DNA of 64,000 nucleotides from a virus (IMGVR_UViG_3300036770_002724:32001-96000); one strand, 5' to 3'. Numbered from the stretch's first letter, positions 1,146 through 49,097 are shown. Program-made: numbers and translations. The notes: generated by a model not told the origin, from the sequence alone.

Positions 1146-3014
1146 ATGGGCCTAGCCAATATCGCGATGGGCGTGGGGCGTACCAAGCCCTCGGGAAGCG
1201 CCCCCTCTTCCGTCGTAGACATCATCACCTTCGCGGAATCCGACTGGGGACTGGGGTGTAACCTCTTTCCGGCTCAGAGAGTCATCCTCAAAGCCTTCTA
1301 CGGGATCCCTCTCAACGATACAGACAAGACGGTCCCCGTTTCGGACTGGCGTCGGCAAAGCTGGGCGCACATGACGGAAGCGGACTACCTCCGCAAGCTC
1401 TTCGACGACGGGCGGTCCAGTATCCGCGAGGTCGTCCCGGGAGATGAACGCCACGAGCTAGTTCTGAGCATCGGGCGCCGTTCAGGGAAGACGTTGATGG
1501 CGTCGGTCATCGCGACCTACGAGACGTACAAGCTGCTGCTGAAGGGGTGTCCTCAGAAGTACTACGGGCTTCCGACGACCAACGAGATCGGTATCGCCAG
1601 CGTCGCGACGGACAAGAAACAGGCAGGTATCCTCTACACAAACGTCTCAGGCTACTTCGCGGATTGTTCCTTCTTCTCGCAGTACATGGCGAATAGCACC
1701 CTGAGCTTCGCCAAGCTACAGACCCCCTACGACATCGAACGCTACGGTCGATTCAATGAGGCAGAGACCACCCGGTCCTCTATCTTCGTGAGCTTTCACG
1801 CTTGTGTCGCCAAGGGTCTTCGTGGTCCCGGCAACATCGTCATCATCCTCGACGAGCTAGCTCACTTCGTCGATGAGGGGCAGTCCTCCGCCGAACTGGT
1901 GTACAACGCGATCACGCCCAGCAAGTCGGCGTTTTCGCCCAAAGACCCCAACAGCCCCCAAGTCCCGACCGGCCCCGTAGAGGGGCGGGTGATCAGCATC
2001 AGTTCTCCTCTGGGTCGTCAGGGTCAGTTCTATTCCCTGTTTGAGATCGCCATGCGGGGGAGCGAGGCGAGCAAGGACATGCTCGCGATCCAGGCTCCGA
2101 CCTGGGAAGTCAACCCGACGGTCCCGGCGACCGAGTTCGAGAAGCACTACCTCAAGAATCAGACGGTCTTTTTCACGGAGTACGGGGCAGAGTTCACCGA
2201 CCGGACCCGAGGGTGGATCGAGCGGGCCGAAGACCTGGAAGCCTGCATTGACCCCACGGCAAAGCAGGTAGATGCTGCTCCGGCACGTCGCCCCCACTTC
2301 ATCGGGATCGACTTGGGCATGGTGGAGGACGCCTCTGCCGTGGCTATCGGCCACATCGAGGAACGCGAGGGTGAGAAGGTCATCATCGTGGATCTCGTGG
2401 ACCAGATCAAGGCTGGGGATGGCCGTTTCGCCAACGTCGAACGGCTAGATTTTGATGACATCGCGGACTGGATCCACCAGCTTTCCAAGCGGTTCTATCT
2501 GGCCGGTGGGGTGTTCGACCAGTGGGCGGGAATCCCGTTCGAGCAAGCTCTGGCAAAGCGGGGGCTTCGTCAACTGGTCTCGGAGCACATGACCAAGAAT
2601 CTGGTAAGCTCCATCTACCAGAACTTCAAGGACATGATGTTCGACCGTCGACTGGTCCTGTACGACGCCCCCATTCCTCCGGGCAAAAACCACTGCGATT
2701 ACATCCAGGAGCTTTTGGAGCTACAGGCACAGTCCGTCTCGAAGTACATCACGGTCGTCGAGGCTCCTAACATCGAGGGTAAGCACGATGACCGTTCGGA
2801 CGCCCTCGTCCGTATGGTCTGGCTCGCTAGCCAGAACATCACCAAACCCAAGTACATATCCAGGGGTGACGGGGCGACCTTGTCGCAGAGGACCGCAGCT
2901 ACGGCGAACATCCGGGAGGTCGCTAAAGCGGCTCTAGGTGCCCGTAAGATGGGGTCGCACCCTTCCCGGCAAGTTTCCCCTCTAGGCAGGGGTCGGGTTC
3001 TCGGTCGGAGGTGA
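1146..3014 (+). CDS. terL: Terminase large subunit
   Basis: Walker A SIGRRSGKT, Walker B IIILDE, coupling motif ISISSP, RNase H-like nuclease motifs IGIDLG and HDDRSDA. Confidence 0.95.
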   Translation: MGLANIAMGVGRTKPSGSAPSSVVDIITFAESDWGLGCNLFPAQRVILKAFYGIPLNDTDKTVPVSDWRRQSWAHMTEADYLRKLFDDGRSSIREVVPGDERHELVLSIGRRSGKTLMASVIATYETYKLLLKGCPQKYYGLPTTNEIGIASVATDKKQAGILYTNVSGYFADCSFFSQYMANSTLSFAKLQTPYDIERYGRFNEAETTRSSIFVSFHACVAKGLRGPGNIVIILDELAHFVDEGQSSAELVYNAITPSKSAFSPKDPNSPQVPTGPVEGRVISISSPLGRQGQFYSLFEIAMRGSEASKDMLAIQAPTWEVNPTVPATEFEKHYLKNQTVFFTEYGAEFTDRTRGWIERAEDLEACIDPTAKQVDAAPARRPHFIGIDLGMVEDASAVAIGHIEEREGEKVIIVDLVDQIKAGDGRFANVERLDFDDIADWIHQLSKRFYLAGGVFDQWAGIPFEQALAKRGLRQLVSEHMTKNLVSSIYQNFKDMMFDRRLVLYDAPIPPGKNHCDYIQELLELQAQSVSKYITVVEAPNIEGKHDDRSDALVRMVWLASQNITKPKYISRGDGATLSQRTAATANIREVAKAALGARKMGSHPSRQVSPLGRGRVLGRR

Positions 3015-3018
3015 TGTC

Positions 3019-3282
3019 ATGCCAAGCCTTTCGGTTACCAGTCCCGTTCGGGCCGACCATCGCTTTTTGAAGAAAGTCGTCTCCGTCATCCTTGGGGGTA
3101 AGGTAGAGAGTCGACCGAGCGAGTTCTCGATGATCTCCCGGGCTTTCGTTCAGGTAGGTGGTTCGTGGGAACGTATCTTCAAGGGCTCCCCCCAAGACGT
3201 GCATCTGCTCAAACGGATCGTCCGAAGAGCCTACAAGCTCGGATTGTTGACGAAGATAGAGCCGTGGGGGGCTCGTGACTAG
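3019..3282 (+). CDS. Hypothetical protein (87 aa)
   Basis: Fills gap between terL and the next ORF with tight spacing. Confidence 0.55.
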   Translation: MPSLSVTSPVRADHRFLKKVVSVILGGKVESRPSEFSMISRAFVQVGGSWERIFKGSPQDVHLLKRIVRRAYKLGLLTKIEPWGARD

Positions 3283-3676
3283 GTCAAGGGTACGTCGCCG
3301 TGCTCAGGAAGATTTCGGTCGGGAGATGCAGCAGCACATTTCCCGGTCCCTTCGGCATTTGATCCAAGCCCAAGAGATATGTCAGCGGATTGCACGGGAT
3401 GCGGATCCCATGAACCGCATTGAGGTTCGACGTGCAAGGGTCGCGAATCAGACGTTGAGCAGGGTGCGCTCGCTCATCGAACAGATTGGACCCTTGTCTC
3501 CGGGCTACGATAAGAGTGACCCCGACCTGACGCCCGAGACTACGAAGCGTCCGAGGCAGTCGGAAAAGCAAGCGTCACAACAGTCCGCAAAGCCGGTCAA
3601 GCGGGTGTTGTCATTCCAAGACCGGGTCCGGCAAGCCTTGGAGAAGATGAGGGAACAGGATGGCTCGGAACAATAA
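3275..3676 (+). CDS. Hypothetical basic protein (133 aa)
   Basis: GTG start overlapping the previous stop; end overlaps portal start. Confidence 0.55.
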   Translation: MTRSRVRRRAQEDFGREMQQHISRSLRHLIQAQEICQRIARDADPMNRIEVRRARVANQTLSRVRSLIEQIGPLSPGYDKSDPDLTPETTKRPRQSEKQASQQSAKPVKRVLSFQDRVRQALEKMREQDGSEQ

Positions 3677-12538: not shown

Positions 12539-15280
12539 ATGGCTTTCCTGAAGTACGCCAAGGCTGCGGTCGTCACCCCCTTCGTCACCCGGCAGCAGTG
12601 GACGAACGTCCGCGTCGCAGGTGAGTCGGCCAAGGTGGATCTTCCTTCCAACCTCGTCGAGAGGGCTGCTACCCTTTTTGACGAGCCCTTCGACCCCAAG
12701 AAGTACCTTTTGACCCACGCGACCATCGTCGCCTCCGTGGATGTCTTCGCCCCCAAAGGCGTGAAGGTCGGCAAGGTTCAGGAGGACGGCTTTCGGGTCA
12801 ATCGCAAGTACGCCGACTACAGGGTCAAGGCGGACTGCCAGAAGTACATCAACAACAACCGGGACTGTTGGTCCCGTGCTGTTCTTGCCAAATCCTACAA
12901 GACCTTCGTGGGGAGCCACAACTTCGTCGAGCACGTCCAGATTGAGGACTTGTCGAAGGGTCGTATCATCGACGCGGTGGCCCGGGACATCGGGGAGTCG
13001 ATTTACGTCGACATCTTGATTGCGACCGACCGTAAGCACAAGGATCTCGTCGAGGCCATCCAGTCGGGCAAGATGGGAACCCTGTCGATGGGCTGTTTCC
13101 TTCCTGGGACTCAGGTCACAATGGCGGACGGACGCCGTATTGCCATTGAGGATGTGCAGCCTGGCGATATGGTTTTGACCCACAAAGGTCGTTCGCGTGA
13201 GGTTCTGAATAAGCAGATCCGAGGCGGCAAGTGGGACATGCGGACGATCCACGCTGTCGGGCTGGCCTCCCCCATCACGTCCACCGGAAACCACCCCTAC
13301 TACGTCCTGCGCCCAGCCGAGGTTTGCGCTTGCGGGTGCGGTGAGGCGTTGCCCGTTTATGCCCCGGCGGTGAAGAAGCCGACAACCCGTAGCCTGACTC
13401 GACGGTTCAAGGTTGGGCACGACAAGCGCATCCTGAATCCAAACAACACCTACTCGATGGACGAGTTCAAGCGTCGGAAGGCGCAGATGAACGAGATCCA
13501 GAACCCCGATTTGGTGAAGGTTCGGGCTGATGAGCTTCGGGTCGGGGACTTCATCGCCTTTCCACGGGTGAAAGACGGGGAGCACACGGTCCCTGTTTCT
13601 GAGGGCAAGGCTCGCTTGCTGGGATACTTTTTGGCTGAAGGTAGCTTCAACAAGCGGAAGGGTCGTCGGACGACTGTGGTGTTCTCGTTCTCAATGGAGG
13701 AGAAGGACACCCTCGTCGCAGAGGTGGTTCGGCTGTTGGAACAAGAGTTCCCCGGCAAAAACAAGCCGTGGGTGCAAGATCGGGTCAAGCGGAACACCTG
13801 CGTGGTCCACCTGACCAGTCGCAAGGCGGCAGATTGGTTCCACAAGCACGGCGGCGAGTACAGCCACGGCAAGTGCCTGTCTGCTGACGCGATGAACTGG
13901 TCGCAGGAGAACCACAAGCATCTGATCGGAACGTGGCTCAATGGGGACGGTCACCGTGCCAAGGCTCACGGGGGGTTCCTCGTGGGTACCACCGTGTCAT
14001 TGGACCTCGCTAACCAGTTGCACGCCCTGATGGCGAAATGCGGCTGGTTTGCTCGCTTTGAAGCCCGCATTGGATCGAAGTCGATCACGGTAGCAGAGGC
14101 CATCAACGGTGGGGTCGCTGTTCGTGACGAGTCCACAGGACGCCTCCCGGCTTTCTTGTTGACCATCGGGAACACGCAATCGGTCGAGTTGCAAGGCTAC
14201 TGTGCTAAGGCTCCCGCCACGTCGAAGTACGGCAAACAGAACAATCGCGTCTTCGATGACTGGGTGATCAGCCCGATCACGGCTATTGGGGAGAGCACCT
14301 ACGAAGGTTGGGTTCACGATATGGAAGTGGACGAAGACCACACCTATGTCGCAGAGGGGGCTTCGGTTTCAAATTGTACGGTAGACGGTACGATATGTAC
14401 GAAGTGCGGCCACTGGGCTTCGGATGAGACGGAGATGTGCCCCCACGTCAAGTACGAGAAGGGGAATACCTTCTACGACAAGGAAGGTCGGAAGCACATC
14501 GTGGCAGAGCTTTGCGGTCACGAGGATCTGGACCCGACCGGAGGCGTGAAGTTCATCGAAGCCTCTTGGGTGGCGACTCCGGCGTTCACGGGCGCGGTTC
14601 TTAGGAACGTCCTGGAGCCGACCGTGGAGATTTCTCGCAAGGCTCAGAAGGTGCTATCCTCTCCCCCGAATCAGTGGGACGAGAGCGCCCGTAAGAAAGC
14701 GGCTTTCTCGCTTGACCAGAAGTCTCTGGAAGGTCGGGTAGAGGCCCGTCGCCGGGCACGGCTCGCTTCGATTTACGCCCAAGATGATGGGATGTCCGAC
14801 CCCTCTGAGGGGGGTGGTGAAGCTGCGAAGGCGGAGCCTGCGAGCCCCCTGAAGGACATTGAGGACCAGTTGACCCAGACCTTGCTCGACAAGGTGCGGA
14901 AGCGGGTCGAGGACACCATCAAGGATGACACCAAGCCTATGGGTCCGCCCGAGGCTTCGATTGCCACGAACGAAAGTCTCAGCAGGGTCGCTCACATCCC
15001 CGGTATGATCCGGGTTTACGAGCAAGGTCTACGGAAGCTCGCACGAACGGCCACTACGGATGTTGAGCTTGTGGACCGTATTGCGGATTATCACAAAGGA
15101 ATCGGTCTGGAAGTTCCCGTTTCTGTCTATAGAGCCTGCCTAAAGGTAGGTGCAGTAGGCAACTACGGGTCGCAACAGGAGTTCCTGTCGTCCTGCCGGA
15201 AGGCTCTCGGTCGAAACCCCACGAAGGTGGAAGCGGGAGTCCTCATCCGACTGGGAAAGCTCCTCTCCCACGTTGGGTGA
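12539..15280 (+). CDS. Prohead (capsid maturation) serine protease precursor interrupted by an intein
   Basis: Extein motifs NFVEH, GTLSMG/C and FIEASWVATPAF typical of HK97/herpes-fold prohead proteases; located before scaffold and capsid genes. Confidence 0.85.
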   Translation: MAFLKYAKAAVVTPFVTRQQWTNVRVAGESAKVDLPSNLVERAATLFDEPFDPKKYLLTHATIVASVDVFAPKGVKVGKVQEDGFRVNRKYADYRVKADCQKYINNNRDCWSRAVLAKSYKTFVGSHNFVEHVQIEDLSKGRIIDAVARDIGESIYVDILIATDRKHKDLVEAIQSGKMGTLSMGCFLPGTQVTMADGRRIAIEDVQPGDMVLTHKGRSREVLNKQIRGGKWDMRTIHAVGLASPITSTGNHPYYVLRPAEVCACGCGEALPVYAPAVKKPTTRSLTRRFKVGHDKRILNPNNTYSMDEFKRRKAQMNEIQNPDLVKVRADELRVGDFIAFPRVKDGEHTVPVSEGKARLLGYFLAEGSFNKRKGRRTTVVFSFSMEEKDTLVAEVVRLLEQEFPGKNKPWVQDRVKRNTCVVHLTSRKAADWFHKHGGEYSHGKCLSADAMNWSQENHKHLIGTWLNGDGHRAKAHGGFLVGTTVSLDLANQLHALMAKCGWFARFEARIGSKSITVAEAINGGVAVRDESTGRLPAFLLTIGNTQSVELQGYCAKAPATSKYGKQNNRVFDDWVISPITAIGESTYEGWVHDMEVDEDHTYVAEGASVSNCTVDGTICTKCGHWASDETEMCPHVKYEKGNTFYDKEGRKHIVAELCGHEDLDPTGGVKFIEASWVATPAFTGAVLRNVLEPTVEISRKAQKVLSSPPNQWDESARKKAAFSLDQKSLEGRVEARRRARLASIYAQDDGMSDPSEGGGEAAKAEPASPLKDIEDQLTQTLLDKVRKRVEDTIKDDTKPMGPPEASIATNESLSRVAHIPGMIRVYEQGLRKLARTATTDVELVDRIADYHKGIGLEVPVSVYRACLKVGAVGNYGSQQEFLSSCRKALGRNPTKVEAGVLIRLGKLLSHVG
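13094..14374 (+). mobile_element. Intein (427 aa) with LAGLIDADG homing endonuclease
   Basis: Block A CFLPGTQVTMADG, block B ITSTGNHPYY, LLGYFLAEGS and LIGTWLNGDG, block F/G VHDMEVDEDHTYVAEGASVSN followed by Cys+1. Confidence 0.95.
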
Positions 15281-17221: not shown

Positions 17222-17268
17222 AAAAGCCCCTTGGACCTGATTTCTAGGTCCAAGGGGCTTTTTCTTTT
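17222..17268. terminator. Intrinsic terminator, possibly bidirectional
   Basis: Perfect 17-bp stem AAAAGCCCCTTGGACCT / AGGTCCAAGGGGCTTTT, 7-nt loop, followed by TCTTTT. Confidence 0.85.
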
Positions 17269-18138: not shown

Positions 18139-19011
18139 ATGGCAGTAGATAACGCCATCAAGCAGCGGATCATCGGTGAGTACATCAAGACCGCCGCTGG
18201 TCGTGCAAAGCTCGCTGCGTCGATGACGCAGCCCCTGCGGACTCGTCGTGACTACGCGGCGGTGGGTCGTAAGACCTTCCTCGTCGAGCAGCTTCCCGAC
18301 GGTGCCCTTCCGATTTACGACAAGGATCCGGACGTCACGGCGTTCGTGGTGGGTGAGGAAGGCGAGAACATCGTCGGCATCACCAAGCCCCGGCGTGTGA
18401 TCTTCCCGCTGTTCGAGATTGCCTCGAACCCGGAGATCCCGCTGACCCAGATCAAGGAGCGCCGCTTCGACCTCATCGAGCGTGCCCAGGATCTCGCGAA
18501 GGCGCAGATCCAGGCTGCCGAGGACGAGCGGGTTTTCGCGATTCTGGACGCTATCGCCACGGCGGGTTTCGACTCGCTCCCGGCGCAGCTAAACGCGGAC
18601 ATCCCGGTTGTGGCTCCGATCAGCGGTGCCGTCCTCGCGGACGCCTTCGCTCTGATCGAGCGTCACGATCTCCGGGTTGCTCGCGTGTACATGAACGCTC
18701 GCGACTACGCGGACCTCCGCAAGTTCGGGCGTGACATCCTGGACATCGAGACCCAGGCGACCCTGCTCAAGACCGGCCTTATGGCGACCCTCTGGGGCTC
18801 GCAGGTCATCACGAGCCGTCTGGTCCCGGTGGGCACGGTGTACCTGTGCTGCGAACCGGAACACTTCGGTCGCATCCCCGTCCGTACGGAACTGACTGTT
18901 CTTTCGGCGGATGACCCGAAGGCTCGGACCATCGGGTTTTCCTGCTTCGAGAACCTGGGCATCGGGGCGTACAACCCCCGTGGCCTGGCGCGTCTGACCG
19001 TGACCCGCTAG
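18139..19011 (+). CDS. Major capsid protein (HK97 fold)
   Basis: SD AAGGAG, strongly biased codons, 290 aa; motifs QPLRTRRDY, VEQLPDGALPIYDKD, IQAAEDERVF, YMNARDYADLRK, FENLGIGAYNPRG; strong terminator downstream. Confidence 0.88.
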   Translation: MAVDNAIKQRIIGEYIKTAAGRAKLAASMTQPLRTRRDYAAVGRKTFLVEQLPDGALPIYDKDPDVTAFVVGEEGENIVGITKPRRVIFPLFEIASNPEIPLTQIKERRFDLIERAQDLAKAQIQAAEDERVFAILDAIATAGFDSLPAQLNADIPVVAPISGAVLADAFALIERHDLRVARVYMNARDYADLRKFGRDILDIETQATLLKTGLMATLWGSQVITSRLVPVGTVYLCCEPEHFGRIPVRTELTVLSADDPKARTIGFSCFENLGIGAYNPRGLARLTVTR

Positions 19012-19039
19012 TCAAGCCCGCGTAATCGCTGGACAATAG

Positions 19040-19084
19040 ACGCCTAGCGTTCCCCTCAAAAGGAACGCTAGGCGTTTTTTGTTT
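19040..19084 (+). terminator. Intrinsic terminator after major capsid gene
   Basis: 14-bp stem ACGCCTAGCGTTCC / GGAACGCTAGGCGT followed by TTTTTGTTT. Confidence 0.9.
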
Positions 19085-19163
19085 GTCCGGCCCTCCCGCC
19101 TACCCTCTTCGGTTCTTGTGTGTACGATTGTTGTTGATACCGCGCATCTGGTCGTATACTGTT

Positions 19164-21122
19164 GTGGTGGTGTCTACATCCCCGGAAGTAACCCCCGATC
19201 AGTTACGTCAGTGGTACGAGGTGGAGCTTCTCTCCGAGGAGGCCATCGCTGAAAAGCTGGGCACCTATCAAGTCTGGGTGAGCCGCAAGCGAAAGAAGTA
19301 CGGGATACCCACCATCACACAGGCGGAGCGGAGTCAGAGGCGGCTACCGTCATTGTCGGACTACCAAGTTCAGGTGCTCACCGGCTCCCTGTTGGGGGAC
19401 GGGTGGATGGATGCGACCAGTAAAGCCTCCGCACGTTTCCAAGAGGGGCATTGTGTCGAGCAGGCCGCATACACGGAGTGGAAAGCCGAGGTCTTTCAGC
19501 CGTTCGTCTCAGGTCTGATGGACCGAAAAAAGAACGACCTCAAAGCCGGTAAGACCTTCTACTCCAAGGTGCTCGTGACGACGTCCTGTCCACAGCTTCG
19601 CTTCTTTTACGATCTCTTCTATCCGGCTCCTGATCGGGTCCGGGTGTTCCCTTCGGATCTTGCTGCTCGGATGACTCCCTTGGTGCTGGCCGTTTGGTAC
19701 ATGGACGACGGCAGTCTGACTACCCGAGGGGAGCCGAGGATTGCGTTTGGTCTTGACGATGAGAGTCGGTCACGGGCTCTCAAGTCCCTGCGGGGGTTAG
19801 GGCTCAGTCCGGTCACCTATGGTGAAGGTGGCAACCAGAGCATCCAGTTCCCCAAGCAGGCTATGAAGTTCCGAGCCCTGATAGAACCCCACATCATCCC
19901 CTGCATGGCGTACAAGCTCCCGACGGAGACCGCCGGTCAAGTTCATCATCGGGAAGCCCGGGAGCTTACCCCTGAGAAAGCAGCGAGTCTCTATCAAGGG
20001 GGTCTGGCGGTTGAGCAGATCGCAAAGACCTTCAACGTGGGCGCCTCGACTGTAGGCCGTCGCTTGCTAGCCGCAGGGACAAAGCGGAATCAGCGTCCAG
20101 GACCGAAGGGCAAGACTGCGTCCCTGACCTTGGATGCTGCACAGAAATACCTCGCCCGGTACAATTCTTCACAATGGGCAGGGCTTTCGTCGGACGATCA
20201 AGAGCGATGGGTCGCGGACGTTTTCCGTGTGCTGCGGAGCCTCCCGCTGCCGGTGTTCCCAGCAGCGGGACCAGAAGAAGCTAAAGACCTGCTGGGGCAG
20301 GTACAGCAAGCTGAGATGTCCTTGATAGGCAACGTCATCCAGCCTATCCGAAGGGTTGGTATCTCCCTCTGCAACGGCTTCTTCCCTAACCGTTACGAGG
20401 CGGTGTCCTTGGGTGAGAAGTCCGCGTTCGAGGCGTGGCACACCGATAAGCTGCTGGAGCGGGCGATCAGGTTTCAGTTCAAGGTAGGTGACCCGGTGCT
20501 GCCTCATCGGGTGCTTCGGGCGGTTACGATGAACTGCCGGACGCCGACGATCTTTCGACCGACAGTAGCCCGATTCGTCTATCAGAGATATTGCTCGGCT
20601 GGGGGCACGGTCTGGGATCCCTGTTCTGGATTCGGTGGACGCCTCTTGGGTGCCCTGGCTGCGGGTGTGGAGTACGTTGGGACGGACGTGGACTCTGCGA
20701 CCGTGGAGGGCAACCTGGCGCTTGCAAAGACTTTGGGGCGAGAGGTACGAGTCGAGAAGACACCAGCGGAGAAGTTTGTGCCTCCGCCCGTGGATCTGGT
20801 GTTCACTTCACCCCCCTACTTCAACCGAGAGCTATACTCGCAAGAGGAGGGTCAGTCCTGGAAGCAGTATTCGGAGTTCGATGGATGGGTCGAGGGCTTC
20901 TTGCGGCCCGTCGTACAGAAGGCTCGAAAGGCGTTACGTCCGACGGGGCGGTTGGTGCTGAACGTAGCGAACGTGCGTAGCCATCGGGAGGCTATTCCTT
21001 TGGTAGACGTGACGATGCAGGTCGCCCAAGAGGAGGGCTTCCGTCTGGTAGAGACGCTTCGGATGCCTTTGCCGAAACTGAATCGAGATAACCCCTCAGA
21101 GCCTGTGCTGGTTTTTGAGTGA
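19164..21122 (+). CDS. Fusion of LAGLIDADG homing endonuclease and amino (N6A/N4C) DNA methyltransferase
   Basis: VLTGSLLGDGWM and LAVWYMDDGS; C-terminal WDPCSGFGGRLLGA (motif I) and DLVFTSPPYF (motif IV); start uncertain (GTG 19164-19170, after TATACT at 19155). Confidence 0.8.
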   Translation: MVVSTSPEVTPDQLRQWYEVELLSEEAIAEKLGTYQVWVSRKRKKYGIPTITQAERSQRRLPSLSDYQVQVLTGSLLGDGWMDATSKASARFQEGHCVEQAAYTEWKAEVFQPFVSGLMDRKKNDLKAGKTFYSKVLVTTSCPQLRFFYDLFYPAPDRVRVFPSDLAARMTPLVLAVWYMDDGSLTTRGEPRIAFGLDDESRSRALKSLRGLGLSPVTYGEGGNQSIQFPKQAMKFRALIEPHIIPCMAYKLPTETAGQVHHREARELTPEKAASLYQGGLAVEQIAKTFNVGASTVGRRLLAAGTKRNQRPGPKGKTASLTLDAAQKYLARYNSSQWAGLSSDDQERWVADVFRVLRSLPLPVFPAAGPEEAKDLLGQVQQAEMSLIGNVIQPIRRVGISLCNGFFPNRYEAVSLGEKSAFEAWHTDKLLERAIRFQFKVGDPVLPHRVLRAVTMNCRTPTIFRPTVARFVYQRYCSAGGTVWDPCSGFGGRLLGALAAGVEYVGTDVDSATVEGNLALAKTLGREVRVEKTPAEKFVPPPVDLVFTSPPYFNRELYSQEEGQSWKQYSEFDGWVEGFLRPVVQKARKALRPTGRLVLNVANVRSHREAIPLVDVTMQVAQEEGFRLVETLRMPLPKLNRDNPSEPVLVFE

Positions 21123-21136
21123 TTGGGGCCTTAGTC

Positions 21137-21982
21137 ATGTCGCTCTTTGATTCCGTCGTCGTCTTTCGCCCTCATGGGTATGTCCACAACTGCTTCGCGG
21201 AGTGCGCTCTCGCGATGAATGAAGCCGCCAAAGACTTGGGGTGGATCCCTTCTGAACAGCCTGTTTTCGAGGTAGACACACCGGAAGTTCTTCGAGGACT
21301 GAACCGCCCTCTCGTCTTCGGAGTCGTCCTCGCCCCCTCGTGGGCGCAGTACCTCCCTGAAGGCTCCGTCCTCTACAACCTGGAGCAGTCGGGAGCCCCG
21401 ATCACCTGGGGGGTGTACCAAGAGGTGTTGAAGCGGTCCCGCATCTGGGACTACGATCCGGTCAACAGGGGAACCCAGGATTGGCCCGTATGCCGGATAG
21501 GCTACCATCCGGTCCTCAGTCAGTTTTCACTCGCAGACGTGCGCCCCATCGACGTTTTCTTTTACGGGTCGATCAACGCCCGGCGTGCTGACCTGTTCGA
21601 TAGAATCCGGTCTCGCGGGTTGAACGTCGTCGCTCGTTTCGGGGTTTACGGGGAGGAGCGGGATCGGCTCATGGCTCAGTCGAAGGTGGTCCTCAACCTC
21701 CACTATCATTCCGACAAGGGGATCTTCGAGCAGGTCCGCTGCCAATACCCCCTGTCCAATCGGATCGCGGTCGTCTCTGAAACCGGAGCCTCGTCCGAGG
21801 TGGAAGCGGAGTACGCGGAGGCTGTCCGGTTTGCTCCCTACGAAGGGCTCGCGGACGCTTGTAAAGAACTGGCGCGAGGCCCGTGGAAGGCTCAAGGGGA
21901 CAGGGGTTTCGAGGTCTACTCGACCTCGATGCTCCAGTCCCGTTACCTCTCAATCCTCGAAAGGCCCGTCACCCCCGGGTAG
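21137..21982 (+). CDS. GT-B glycosyltransferase (family 1-like)
   Basis: DVFFYGSINARR, YGEERDRLMAQSKVVLNLH, FEQVR..SNRIAVVSE. Confidence 0.75.
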   Translation: MSLFDSVVVFRPHGYVHNCFAECALAMNEAAKDLGWIPSEQPVFEVDTPEVLRGLNRPLVFGVVLAPSWAQYLPEGSVLYNLEQSGAPITWGVYQEVLKRSRIWDYDPVNRGTQDWPVCRIGYHPVLSQFSLADVRPIDVFFYGSINARRADLFDRIRSRGLNVVARFGVYGEERDRLMAQSKVVLNLHYHSDKGIFEQVRCQYPLSNRIAVVSETGASSEVEAEYAEAVRFAPYEGLADACKELARGPWKAQGDRGFEVYSTSMLQSRYLSILERPVTPG

Positions 21983-21992
21983 GGGGTGACGG
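21966..21992. terminator. GC-rich hairpin at the end of the glycosyltransferase gene
   Basis: 11-bp stem CCGTCACCCCC / GGGGGTGACGG with 5-nt loop; short U tract only on the minus strand. Confidence 0.5.
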
Positions 21993-22135
21993 CCCAGCGG
22001 ATTGACCTCGTCCTCCCTGGTGGCGACCTCGCGTCCCACGCGGCCACCAGGATAGGGGGGCCTTTGCACCCCTCCACCACCCGGAGCAATCCGCTCACTC
22101 CGGATGGGCCGACCGATTATTGGCGTCGTCCCTGC
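21990..22135 (-). ncRNA. Putative structured non-coding RNA with closing stem and 8-9 bp pseudoknot
   Basis: Pairings 21990-21996/22105-22111, 22081-22086/22098-22103, loop 22087-22094 with 21997-22004, 22016-22024/22043-22051, 22030-22034/22038-22042; lies downstream of the conserved 42-bp element; strand inferred. Confidence 0.5.
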
Positions 22136-22136
22136 T

Positions 22137-22178
22137 ATGACATAGCTATCCGCGACCCGGCCCGGTTTAGCCACAAAA
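22137..22178 (-). promoter_or_regulatory. Conserved 42-bp element, copy 1 (candidate promoter or operator)
   Basis: 36/42 identical to 43544-43585, including exact GCCCGGTTTAGCCACAAAA; phased A-tracts adjacent. Confidence 0.6.
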
Positions 22179-22247
22179 AGCACGAAAAAACGTATCACGC
22201 CTTCGTTGGTTCCTCCTCCGGTTCGGGTACTCGGGCTAGGAGGTCTC

Positions 22248-23294
22248 ATGTACGATCTCAGAGACTACGAATTCTGGAAGCCCTCGACTACCGTCAAAAG
22301 CTCGATGACATGGCGGTCTGCTCTTGTTCTTGCTGCGTGTGGCTCCCAGTTTCTTGAGTATCGCGCACATAAGCCCGTGGGGAAGGACCCGGCAAGGAAC
22401 TTCCCGGGCTTCGATCTCGCCCGTATCGAGCGTGATCTGCGGGAGTGTCTGGGGCCGGAGGCGCGGGGGATCAGGGCGACTGGCGCTTGGAACGAAGCGG
22501 CGATTCAGTTGACCGTCCTGACTCGGACCATGTTGATCTGTTTCCGACCCGACCCCTCGACCAAGGACCGCCCGTTCTTTACTGCCTACGAGAAGGGCGA
22601 GGAGCTTTTCACGTCCTTGGGGCGTTCAGGTGTCCTGCCCTATTTGCTGTCGCCCCACTCGAAGCCCTACTGGAAGTCGTTGCTCATTCTCGGTGCGATG
22701 AGCAGCGGGGCGCGTTTCATCGTATCGGAGCCGACCCCCAGGACTTCCCGGGAAAGGCGTCCGTCTCTTGAAGGGGCTACCTCCCTGTCCCCCTCGCAGA
22801 TCGAAGCCGCCTTGTCCCTTTTGCGTAAGGGGTTCCGGGCTAAAGCAAACGTCGGTGCCTCGGTCAGCACCTTGGAGTTCAAGGTCGATTTCATCGAAAA
22901 GGAAGGGGCCTTCAAGCTCCCGCCCCATTTGGTGTTTTCGGAATCTGAGCTAGAGGGTATTGACGACATGAGCGTCAGCCCTCGTACCCCTGCCGTAGCA
23001 AAGGAGCCTTCTTCGATCATGGTACAAACGCCTGCCAGTCCTCATCCCCTTCACGCCGAAGTGCTTCGTGAACTAGGCCCACTGCTTTCTTTGGAAGCGG
23101 AAGCTCTTGGGGTCAGTCAAGAGGACCTCACCAAGTCTCTGGTAGAGGAGGTCTTGTCGGGTATTCGATCCAGGCTTCGCGAGAGCGCGCAAACCCGTTT
23201 CGATGCTCAGATGTCCCGGCTGGAGGAGGCTCATCAGAAGAAGCTCGCCTCGTTGCGGGAGGAATTCGGTCATTTTCTCGTGAGCCCAAGGTAA
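22248..23294 (+). CDS. Hypothetical protein with C-terminal coiled coil
   Basis: SD GGAGG before ATG 22248; 348 aa. Confidence 0.65.
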   Translation: MYDLRDYEFWKPSTTVKSSMTWRSALVLAACGSQFLEYRAHKPVGKDPARNFPGFDLARIERDLRECLGPEARGIRATGAWNEAAIQLTVLTRTMLICFRPDPSTKDRPFFTAYEKGEELFTSLGRSGVLPYLLSPHSKPYWKSLLILGAMSSGARFIVSEPTPRTSRERRPSLEGATSLSPSQIEAALSLLRKGFRAKANVGASVSTLEFKVDFIEKEGAFKLPPHLVFSESELEGIDDMSVSPRTPAVAKEPSSIMVQTPASPHPLHAEVLRELGPLLSLEAEALGVSQEDLTKSLVEEVLSGIRSRLRESAQTRFDAQMSRLEEAHQKKLASLREEFGHFLVSPR

Positions 23295-43165: not shown

Positions 43166-43326
43166 AGCCCCTCCTTGTGCCCTCCAGAGAGGACGCCTCA
43201 AAACCCGTACCCTTTGGGTAGCGGGCTTTAGCCCCGGAGCCGGACAACGAAACAGCCCCGGGACTTCATCAGGTGGGAGGCGAGATGTCGAGGCGCCCTC
43301 CCGGGAGGGCACAAGGCCCTCTGATA

Positions 43327-43545
43327 CTACCGGGGCCGGACCAGCCGGTAGTACTCGGTCGTCTTGTCTGCGGCGTCGGTGACGCGCATGAAGCGGGCTC
43401 CCGGCCCGCTCTCATACTTGTCGTCCGCCGCGAACTCCAGGGTCACCATCTGACCCTGGAAGGCGCGGGGGACATCCCAGCGCCCCTCCGCCACCTTGGC
43501 GGGGACGGTCTTAGTCGCCTTGTAGTTGAAACCGTTGACCTTCAT
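43327..43545 (-). CDS. Hypothetical protein (72 aa)
   Basis: ATG 43545 abuts the 42-bp element with no SD, suggesting a leaderless or short-leader transcript. Confidence 0.55.
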   Translation of the reverse strand: MKVNGFNYKATKTVPAKVAEGRWDVPRAFQGQMVTLEFAADDKYESGPGARFMRVTDAADKTTEYYRLVRPR

Positions 43546-43585
43546 GCCATAGCTACTCGTGACCGAGCCCGGTTTAGCCACAAAA
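43544..43585 (-). promoter_or_regulatory. Conserved 42-bp element, copy 2
   Basis: 36/42 identical to 22137-22178. Confidence 0.6.
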
Positions 43586-43648
43586 CGACAGACGCTTCCC
43601 GAATTCCCACGGGGGTCTCGCTTTTTGTTCAATGCACTCAATCAAGTG

Positions 43649-47603: not shown

Positions 47604-49097
47604 ATGCCCGAGGGATGGGATCCGACATCAACCGACCGACCGTTGCCTCCGCAGAACGGTCAGGCGGTCAGTCCTTTCATCACGGGCATCTTGGACATCC
47701 GCTGGGATGACCCCGCCCTTCTCGCGGGAAACAGCATCTACACGGTCGTAGGCGTCAACGTCTATCGCTCTGACGCCTCCGACCGTGGACCCTACTTTCG
47801 GCTCAACGCCCTTCCCGTCGGCGGCGGGTTCTACCGCGACCTCACCGACATGGTTCCGGTTCACCGGGAGGTCATCCCCTGGGATACCGGCTGGATCTTC
47901 CGAGGTGACGCCCCTAACCTTCGGCGGTGGACTCTGCGGACCTCGCAGCCTATCGTGAAGGCGGTCTTTCAACCGCCCTACAGCCGGGCGACGCCTGCGA
48001 ACTCGCCTTCTGACGTTACCGTTTACATCAACGGCATCCTCGTTCCGGTCGAGTCGGTTTTCGGTCCCACGGGAGAAGTGACCCTCGTCAATCTGGGGGA
48101 CATCGACGTTGCTCGCCAGAAGATCGACAACCCGGTTTTGCCGACGGAGACGTCCACGGTCGAGGTTTCTTACTTCGCCGCCCAGAACATCGTTCGGTCG
48201 GGCCTCGAACTCCACAGCTACTACCGGCTGACGACGGTCGTGATCGATCCGACGACTCCTTCCGGATACCGGGAGTCGGGTCTAGGCTACTGTCCGCCGA
48301 TCATCAGCAAGCAAACGGAAGCCCTCGATTACATCTGGCGCGAGGCGGTTCGTCGGAACCAGTGGATCGTTCAGCAGGGCGGGGAGCGGGCCAAGATTTT
48401 CATTCGCAGAACCGCTGGGATCCCTTGTACGCACGGCATGGATCCCCGGACCATTGAGTTTGGGGGTCAGCCTTCGATTCGGTGTCAGATTTGCTTCGGC
48501 ACGGGTTTCGTCGGGGGCTATGACGGGCCTTTCGACGTTCTTATCGCGCCGGATGACGCCGAGCGGAAGATCACCCAGACGATGACGGGTCGGCGCAGGG
48601 AGCACACGCAGGACGTCTGGATAGGGCCGAGCCCCGTCGTCACGATGAGGGACTTCATCGTGAAGCAAACGAACGAGCGGTACTCCATTGGGCCTGTCAG
48701 GAGGCCCACCAATCGAGGCGTCTACCTTCAGCAGCACTTTATGATCGGCTCTCTGGACGAGGCGGACATCCGTTACGCGGTCCCCATCGACGGAGTCGAG
48801 AAGTACGCCTGGCCCCAGAACCGCTGGTCTATCGTCCAGACGCCGACCTCTTTCGTGGACGGCTACCCGCCGACCCCCCAGCAGCGCCAGATCAACGGTC
48901 TCACGCCGACTGCCGATCCGTGGCCCCTTGGACCTACGGCAGAGGCTCCGATGGGAACCTCGAACGGTTCCTCTCCGCCCGAGCTTGAGCAGAGAGGCCG
49001 AACGACGGTCTGGTCCAACATTTCTCGCGCTTTCTGGCCTATACTTCTGCTTCCTAGTATGTGGGAGACATTCTGTGCAGTATCTTGGCCCCTGTGA
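47604..49097 (+). CDS. Putative neck / head-closure protein with Zn-binding CxxCxGxG motif
   Basis: Fn3-like N-terminus (DIRWDDP..VGVNVYRS), CQICFGTGFVGGY, MRDFIVKQTNERYSIGPV; positional context. Confidence 0.6.
   Translation: MPEGWDPTSTDRPLPPQNGQAVSPFITGILDIRWDDPALLAGNSIYTVVGVNVYRSDASDRGPYFRLNALPVGGGFYRDLTDMVPVHREVIPWDTGWIFRGDAPNLRRWTLRTSQPIVKAVFQPPYSRATPANSPSDVTVYINGILVPVESVFGPTGEVTLVNLGDIDVARQKIDNPVLPTETSTVEVSYFAAQNIVRSGLELHSYYRLTTVVIDPTTPSGYRESGLGYCPPIISKQTEALDYIWREAVRRNQWIVQQGGERAKIFIRRTAGIPCTHGMDPRTIEFGGQPSIRCQICFGTGFVGGYDGPFDVLIAPDDAERKITQTMTGRRREHTQDVWIGPSPVVTMRDFIVKQTNERYSIGPVRRPTNRGVYLQQHFMIGSLDEADIRYAVPIDGVEKYAWPQNRWSIVQTPTSFVDGYPPTPQQRQINGLTPTADPWPLGPTAEAPMGTSNGSSPPELEQRGRTTVWSNISRAFWPILLLPSMWETFCAVSWPL

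Follow-up and report, generated by a model that had tools for sequence, protein, structure and literature searches.

Among the closest described counterparts of the locus treated here is the OOP RNA of phage lambda, a short cis-antisense RNA directed against the 3' end of cII in an RNase III-dependent manner (Krinke and Wulff 1987, 1990, as listed in PMC5869508). The locus itself is a 265-nucleotide (nt) gap separating two plus-strand genes in the midst of the structural gene block of an uncultivated, very large phage. It lies in a window of 64,000 nt (IMGVR_UViG_3300036770_002724:32001-96000), which comprises bases 32001-96000 of a linear IMG/VR record of 139,036 base pairs (bp); CheckV puts the completeness of the record at 26%, and the GC content of the phage is 60%. 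On the reading preferred here, to which a probability of about 0.4 is assigned, the gap holds a gene-less unit of a leaderless promoter family that makes a short, non-coding minus-strand RNA antisense to the 3' end of the message of a glycosyltransferase-family gene. Such a unit would share with OOP its short length, a promoter of its own (here a putative one), its convergence with a protein gene, its lack of an open reading frame (ORF), its richness in hairpins and its overlap with only the 3' end of the opposing message. It differs from OOP in having no sequence or structural similarity to it, in being, at its predicted length, about twice its size, in lacking a U-tract terminator, and in facing a glycosyltransferase gene of the structural block rather than a lysis-lysogeny regulator.

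Stable RNA hairpins close to a promoter have also been described in other settings. The put RNAs of phage HK022 are sequence-specific, two-stem elements that act in cis and are promoter-proximal, and ompA-type hairpins are located at the very 5' end of the mRNA. Such elements serve as stabiliser or pause hairpins of mRNAs. Most of the promoter-like boxes considered here resemble them in that a stable hairpin follows the transcript start at a short and fixed spacing; it begins some 23-54 nt after position +38 (counted from the start of the box core), just past the footprint of an initiating ribosome. The hairpins differ in that they have no shared sequence and in that they lie inside coding sequence in 14 of the 15 units.

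The 42-bp box from which the antisense unit would be transcribed is a member of a family. Read on the strand opposite to the printout of the repeat finder, its consensus is TTGTGGCTAAAC, 16 semi-conserved bases, TAG[C/G]T[A/T], four bases and ATG. Exact cores occur ten times in the 139-kilobase (kb) record, and a pattern scan of IMG/VR yielded five more boxes in one related GC-rich phage fragment (IMGVR_UViG_3300036770_002369, 57.9 kb, at 1266-3590) that holds neither the present locus nor its flanking gene nor the capsid gene; a search of IMG/VR with a 15-mer of the box returned chance matches only. A gene follows in the same orientation in 14 of the 15 cases, the exception being the box at the locus under study. 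The ATG stands 38-41 nt after the core start in 13 of 15 copies, with no room for a ribosome site, while one copy has its ATG at +52, led by GGGAGG, and several copies are paired back-to-back between divergent genes. Products encoded downstream include a DNA ligase-like protein of 638 amino acids, a DUF6900 protein and members of PHROG families. The ATG spacing, the lack of room for a ribosome site, the orientation and the divergent pairs together indicate that the box is directional and coupled to gene starts, and it reads as the promoter, or promoter plus operator, of leaderless messages.

Behind each of two tandem boxes of the 57.9-kb fragment (1771-1835 and 2108-2175) stands an identical stretch of 22 nt, ATGGGGGAGCGACCCCCGGGAGG, a leader that contains a 5-bp hairpin at its 5' end and GGGAGG ahead of the real start codon. 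After these boxes the ATG at +38 opens an ORF of merely 11 or 30 codons, and this ATG is thus retained even where it is not the gene start. Further box copies were seen on contigs of the source sequencing run, and the full phage genome probably has more.

At the locus, the box is intact and is oriented leftward, into the hairpins. Scored with a leave-one-out weight matrix it reaches 56.4 bits, second among the 15, and so cannot be regarded as decayed. It carries ATA exactly where the other copies carry ATG (+38), and neither a coding signal nor a homologue was found downstream of it. The only ATG past the box on the minus strand gives a two-codon ORF (ATG-TCA-TAG), as the initial annotation of this DNA had pointed out. 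Codon statistics, trained on the long ORFs of the phage, give real genes a score of 0.26 +/- 0.15 and the family's own small genes (49-146 codons) scores of 0.22-0.43, with a GC content at third codon positions (GC3) of 0.81-0.90. The scores of the region's six frames all lie between -0.42 and -0.02, and the three stop-free candidate ORFs between -0.14 and -0.02, with GC2 of 0.61-0.65. The minus-strand ORF has no relative but itself among 5.8 billion proteins in a word-seeded search, and no homologue among 1.84 billion cluster representatives in a full HMMER search. With ATA at the start position, non-coding codon statistics and no homologues, the stretch downstream of the box is best read as non-coding. 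A leaderless protein gene of the box family, which should have a coding-type ORF and an ATG either 38-41 nt after the core or behind a Shine-Dalgarno sequence, is not supported, given the ATA, the two-codon ATG frame and the scores of the stop-free ORFs. Read-through or recoding of the glycosyltransferase TAG stop was rejected: although the plus frame stays open beyond this codon, its score of -0.02 is of the non-coding type and its translation would continue into the following gene.

A transcript fired leftward from this putative promoter would extend from 22138 to about 21960 as a non-coding RNA of about 150-180 nt, or possibly of about 250 nt. It would first fold the promoter-proximal hairpin that is typical of most units of the family and would then traverse the 9-bp and 11-bp perfect hairpins (Table 1), the latter lying on the glycosyltransferase stop codon. 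Being transcribed from the opposite strand, the RNA would be fully complementary to the glycosyltransferase message over its 3' untranslated region and the final ~20 (up to ~95) nt of its coding part, and this complementarity to a convergent message makes action in cis the most likely. As an antisense RNA, the candidate might direct double-strand cleavage to the glycosyltransferase mRNA at its 3' end, or convergent transcription might halt plus-strand read-through into the next gene. Its 3' end is a guess, for no hairpin is followed by a U-tract.

Table 1. Positions of the promoter-like boxes, hairpins and genes discussed in the text (window coordinates unless the entry names the record)
Feature	Position	Strand	Details
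Promoter-like 42-bp box	22136-22180	-	core TTGTGGCTAAA 22176-22166; TAGCTA 22148-22143; ATA 22138-22136
Weak first hairpin	22106-22132	-	GGG-A-CGAC / GUCG-G-CCC, 11-nt loop; seen in minimum free energy folds
Promoter-proximal hairpin	22077-22107	-	13 bp including three G-U on minus; 6+3 bp on plus
G/C hairpin, weak	22054-22073	both	pair probability 0.0-0.36
9+5-bp hairpin	22016-22051	both	perfect outer stem, strand-symmetric; arms 22016-22024/22043-22051
Segment AGCGGATTGA	21996-22005	both	rival partners 22087-22095 (9 bp) and 21950-21956 (7 bp)
11-bp perfect G/C hairpin	21966-21992	both	arms 21966-21976/21982-21992; glycosyltransferase TAG stop in loop
Long imperfect 18-bp hairpin	21888-21948	+	within conserved codons, glycosyltransferase 3' end
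Glycosyltransferase-family gene, upstream	21119-21982	+	convergent with the box
Proximal control region of downstream gene	22208-22250	+	CCTCC..TTCGGGTA..GGAGG-ATG
Downstream gene, no known family	22248-23294	+	348 amino acids; AGGAGG ribosome site
Other box copy in the window	43541-43587	-	drives 72-codon gene
Box copies outside the window	record 115227-, 118546-, 118572+, 125549+, 133161-, 133178+, 138880-, 138927+		
Example family hairpins	window 43436-43460; record 118650-118671, 125625-125655, 133271-133306, 139005-139032		

The promoter-proximal hairpin in the gap favours the minus strand. Its folding energy there is -21.8 kcal/mol (z -4.75), as against -13.8 kcal/mol (z -3.03) on the plus strand, which is a preference of 8 kcal/mol, and on the minus strand its pair probability (p) is 1.0. 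Across the Boltzmann ensemble the 11-bp, 9-bp and 6-bp local hairpins mostly have p of 0.75-1.0. The outer stem of the 9+5-bp hairpin ranges from 0.52 to 0.996 (at least 0.88 in five of six combinations of strand and sequence context, the minimum coming from the minus strand in one of three contexts), and its inner 5-bp stem from 0.35 to 0.96. When the left flank is added to the folded sequence, the segment GGATTGA (21999-22005) prefers TCAATCC (21950-21956) as its partner (p 0.94-0.97), in a helix that encloses the 11-bp hairpin. On the minus strand two GGAUUG stand opposite a single CAAUCC, and alternative pairings result.

The promoter-proximal hairpin is not peculiar to this locus. In all nine testable box copies the minimum GC-corrected z within 300 nt downstream of the box lies between -2.9 and -4.3; among 110 control gene starts its mean is -1.3, and 6% fall below -3. 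Perfect hairpins of at least 9 bp number 43 in the record, and 13 of them are found within 400 nt downstream of the ten boxes, where about 1.2 would be expected. Over an 80-nt stretch, +15 to +95 relative to position +38, the minimum free energy is -32.2 kcal/mol in 14 family units from the two phages, compared with -23.8 kcal/mol in 85 controls (Mann-Whitney p 6e-5; z -2.0 versus -0.4, p 6e-4). About ten units carry a 9-13-bp hairpin, or a 12-bp composite, in the starting interval given above; where the unit is a coding one, the hairpin falls within proven coding sequence (the ligase-like and DUF6900 genes), with no common sequence. The hairpin of the present locus starts at +32; because it fits this position class, it is to be taken as a generic feature of the family and not as evidence of a special fold. 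The family hairpin may be a stabiliser or a pause signal for leaderless messages. A separate structure was noted downstream of the 72-codon gene that the box at 43583 drives: a 144-nt fold with 27-nt closing arms (window 43173-43316) that includes a canonical terminator-like hairpin with UUUU.

Several observations weigh against an antisense RNA at the locus. A homologous locus was not found in IMG/VR, the JGI metagenomes, GTDB genomes or GenBank phages (by blastn for the GenBank phages, and by flanking proteins plus alignment for IMG/VR), and a relative of the downstream gene with 33% protein identity is without box and hairpins; it is the one find in the JGI metagenomes, on a 2.3-kb contig with a 54-nt gap and a different upstream gene. 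A canonical terminator is absent, with no terminator-like site on either strand between 21000 and 23500, and the minus strand continues after the 11-bp hairpin as GCCUUUCG only, with no U-tract; canonical terminators do exist elsewhere in the genome (e.g., at 19040-19082 and 17222-17262). The part of the region regarded as the core of the RNA in the initial annotation, 22009-22138, is ordinary for this genome (z -1.8 on plus, -2.6 on minus). Lastly, the strongest structure, at 21885-22008, is slightly better on the plus strand (z -6.5, as against -5.9 on minus), where no other window of the 139-kb record exceeds it in stability. It takes in the final ~95 nt of the glycosyltransferase gene together with the hairpin at the stop codon and the GGATTGA segment, lies largely within the protein-constrained gene end and mostly outside the coordinates first annotated, and may belong to the plus-strand message only. 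The long imperfect hairpin within it folds at -35.9 kcal/mol on plus and -31.0 on minus (z about -4.8), a plus-strand advantage of 5 kcal/mol.

These observations lead to the foremost rival, in which the hairpins are 3' structure of the glycosyltransferase message (a terminator, a brake on read-through or a block to exonucleases) that sets this message apart from the next plus-strand gene, the box is silent or only a regulator-binding site, and no discrete minus-strand RNA has a role. Besides the exceptional plus-strand structure, which is centred on the stop codon, and the ordinary core to the right of 22009, it draws on similar U-less G/C hairpins that occur right after the stop codons of other genes (after units 3 and 5). 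The closest relative of the glycosyltransferase has no counterpart to the C-terminal extension PVTPG, which is encoded by the left arm of the 11-bp hairpin; since that relative (P0005) stops five residues sooner, the arm encodes a non-conserved tail, as when a terminator overlaps a gene end. What the rival leaves unexplained is an undecayed, high-scoring box aimed at the hairpins, together with the 8 kcal/mol minus-strand preference of the promoter-proximal hairpin and its position in the family class. It is judged somewhat less likely than the antisense reading. Bidirectional intrinsic terminators share with the locus the placement of perfect G/C hairpins at a stop codon between opposed directions of transcription; here, however, the stems lack flanking U/A tracts, and there are several hairpins in series rather than one. 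An intrinsic (rho-independent) terminator was itself rejected for want of a U-tract after the G/C hairpins.

The antisense unit may have a relative in the same sample. A 7,876-nt contig from the source run contains a diverged box, with 7 differences in 49 nt, which is followed in minus sense by GGACGACGC-TATG-CGGTCGG-GCCGCT-CCGG, where the window has GGACGACGC-CAATAAT-CGGTCGG-CCCAT-CCGG. Over the 30 nt that are visible, both stem blocks of the weak first hairpin (GGACGACGC and CGGTCGG) are kept, the loop is 3 nt shorter and an indel of 1 nt comes after it; on its other side the diverged box has an unrelated flank. This suggests, as a lead, a second copy of non-coding type in a different context. 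The sequence of the diverged copy is in neither the 139-kb record nor IMG/VR, and searches with the block pattern of the RNA's 5' part and with a 30-mer from that copy turned up nothing beyond chance matches. A comparison of the region with the remainder of the record by sensitive blastn was likewise without meaningful hits. Trans targets were considered in the form of two shared 15-mers (at 99253 and, in reverse, at 48521) and set aside, both being without extended similarity. The sequencing runs that match the phage are those of the source sample and of a lake-water relative; no RNA run is among them, and they have no bearing on expression. A more ambitious proposal builds on the diverged copy: a new family of structured regulatory RNAs, with a dedicated copy of the box, at least one diverged paralogue in the same genome (of perhaps about 500 kb), and a GGAUUG/CAAUCC switch that chooses between ending at the 11-bp hairpin and reading on, antisense, into the glycosyltransferase gene. 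It must be called improbable.

Equally a long shot is a small leaderless protein gene, or the remnant of one, opening at the ATA. The minus frame is indeed open from exactly the +38 position for 62 codons (22138 to 21953), the IMG/VR gene caller predicted an ORF of 82 amino acids here (P0003), and the analogous unit at 43583 drives a gene of 72 codons. Yet a frame of 62 codons would stay open by chance with a probability of ~26% at this GC (our own estimate), and its codon score of -0.04, with GC1/2/3 of 0.77/0.61/0.65, falls outside the range of the family's small genes. It has no homologue, as noted, and the indels in the partial second copy break the frame. A 5' ATA should, moreover, not sustain leaderless initiation, which requires an AUG at the very 5' end (Brock et al. 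2008, cited in PMC5312081).

A compact, pseudoknotted RNA was the form in which the locus had first been annotated: a riboswitch-like switch, a ribozyme, or an RNA with intermolecular loop pairing as in phi29 pRNA. The complementary segments named for it (of 11 bp, of 9+5 bp, of 6 bp at 22081-22086/22098-22103 and of 7 bp at 21990-21996/22105-22111) are all present, and the 11-bp hairpin does overlap the 7-bp closing stem by 3 nt. The perfect pairing of the 6-bp hairpin's loop with an upstream segment is also real, but it extends over 9 bp (21996-22004 with 22087-22095) instead of 8. The three local hairpins are predicted to form, whereas the additional G/C hairpin at 22054-22073 is weak, and its suggested GCAA tetraloop needs a G-G mismatch beside the closing pair. 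As to chance, three perfect stems of at least 9 bp occur in the 170 nt, against 0.17 in dinucleotide shuffles, and only 0.2% of shuffles reach three; by fold stability, however, the region 21966-22135 (z -3.2 on plus, -3.6 on minus) is equalled by 3-4% of random 170-nt windows of the same genome (mean z -0.43, standard deviation 1.37), and without the 11-bp hairpin its z of -2.0/-2.3 is matched by about 10% of genome windows.

The global fold itself does not hold. The closing stem has p of at most 0.001 on both strands and in three contexts, owing to the 3 nt that it has in common with the 11-bp hairpin. The 6-bp hairpin, whose loop side contains the AGCGGAUUG of the proposed loop pairing, lengthens to 13 bp on the minus strand and leaves a loop of 5 nt. 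Read from the sequence, the linkers between the 6-bp stem and the 9-bp loop helix measure 0 nt and 2 nt, and in the usual H-type pseudoknot geometry a 2-nt linker cannot cross a 9-bp helix. The H-type pseudoknot as proposed is ruled against by this linker and by the closing stem; a shorter loop contact of 5-7 bp is possible. No Rfam 15 model, those of pRNA, riboswitches, self-cleaving ribozymes, group I/II introns and known sRNAs included, matches at its gathering score in the 64-kb window, and at E<=10 the interval 18900-22400 gave only microRNA, snoRNA and leader noise that stayed far under the cut-offs. The locus resembles phi29 pRNA (RF00044) in being a phage sequence whose RNA would have a hairpin loop able to pair with another segment. 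It differs in matching no Rfam model, in lying beside neither packaging genes nor a genome end, and in offering one loop with one linear partner in place of two inter-locking loops; intermolecular rings are further disfavoured by the lack of a second copy in the record. What speaks for the pseudoknotted form, namely the 9-bp loop complement, the scarcity in shuffles of three long stems and the alternative GGAUUG/CAAUCC pairings, leaves it very unlikely, and the evidence does not establish a new class of pseudoknotted RNA. The initial annotation is in sum partly confirmed as an observation and partly supported as an interpretation: a minus-strand non-coding transcript is reasonable, whereas the riboswitch, the ribozyme and the pRNA-like RNA fail for want of an Rfam match.

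The least probable explanation, a DNA-level element (a recombination, replication or packaging site) built of inverted repeats for which RNA folding is irrelevant, can point to z values that are alike on both strands for most parts and to two stems with perfect palindromic arms, but it sits in the middle of a structural gene block, has no other copies, and does not account for the strand-specific G-U pairs of two hairpins.

The glycosyltransferase has 41 homologues, the window's own protein included, several of them with PF13524 or named as glycosyltransferases; the closest non-self match is P0005, at 73% identity. The nearest relative of the downstream protein, P0001 (61% identical), is encoded on the same 29.8-kb contig as P0005, which shows that synteny of the flanking genes exists. 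The downstream gene is preceded by a proximal control region in which a CCTCC...GGAGG stem, with TTCGGGTA between its arms, would hide the ribosome site; this region of ~50 nt is conserved in the relative that is only 33% identical in protein. The nearest cellular homologues of the glycosyltransferase come from Streptomyces and Acidimicrobiales, and together with the leaderless gene starts this gives a hint, and only a hint, of an actinobacterial host.

The capsid gene lies at 18139-19011 (phrog_2522). Between it and the glycosyltransferase gene lies an ORF at 19083-21122, which overlaps the start of the latter by 4 nt and combines a LAGLIDADG_2 homing-endonuclease domain (residues 97-236), a helix-turn-helix and the N-terminal portion of an N6/N4 DNA methylase (residues 570-659). 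A 913-amino-acid ORF (12539-15280) shows Hint/intein and LAGLIDADG_3 matches within a prohead-protease-like protein and probably contains an intein. ARAGORN found no tRNA or tmRNA. Two 151-nt contigs from a lake-water metagenome run, 97-98% identical to the downstream gene and covering 22971-23256, come from a close relative of this subsurface phage that is present in another habitat at very low coverage.

Should the minus-strand RNA exist, it would join the few candidate regulatory RNAs from uncultivated phages of very large size and would be of an already known kind, the phage cis-antisense small RNA. A promoter family that otherwise serves leaderless protein genes would then have been recruited for a non-coding antisense unit within a structural block. 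The wider and better supported point is the hairpin trait shared across the promoter family: that most units, whether coding or not, have a strong hairpin some dozens of bases past the start amounts to a testable rule for the construction of leaderless phage messages.

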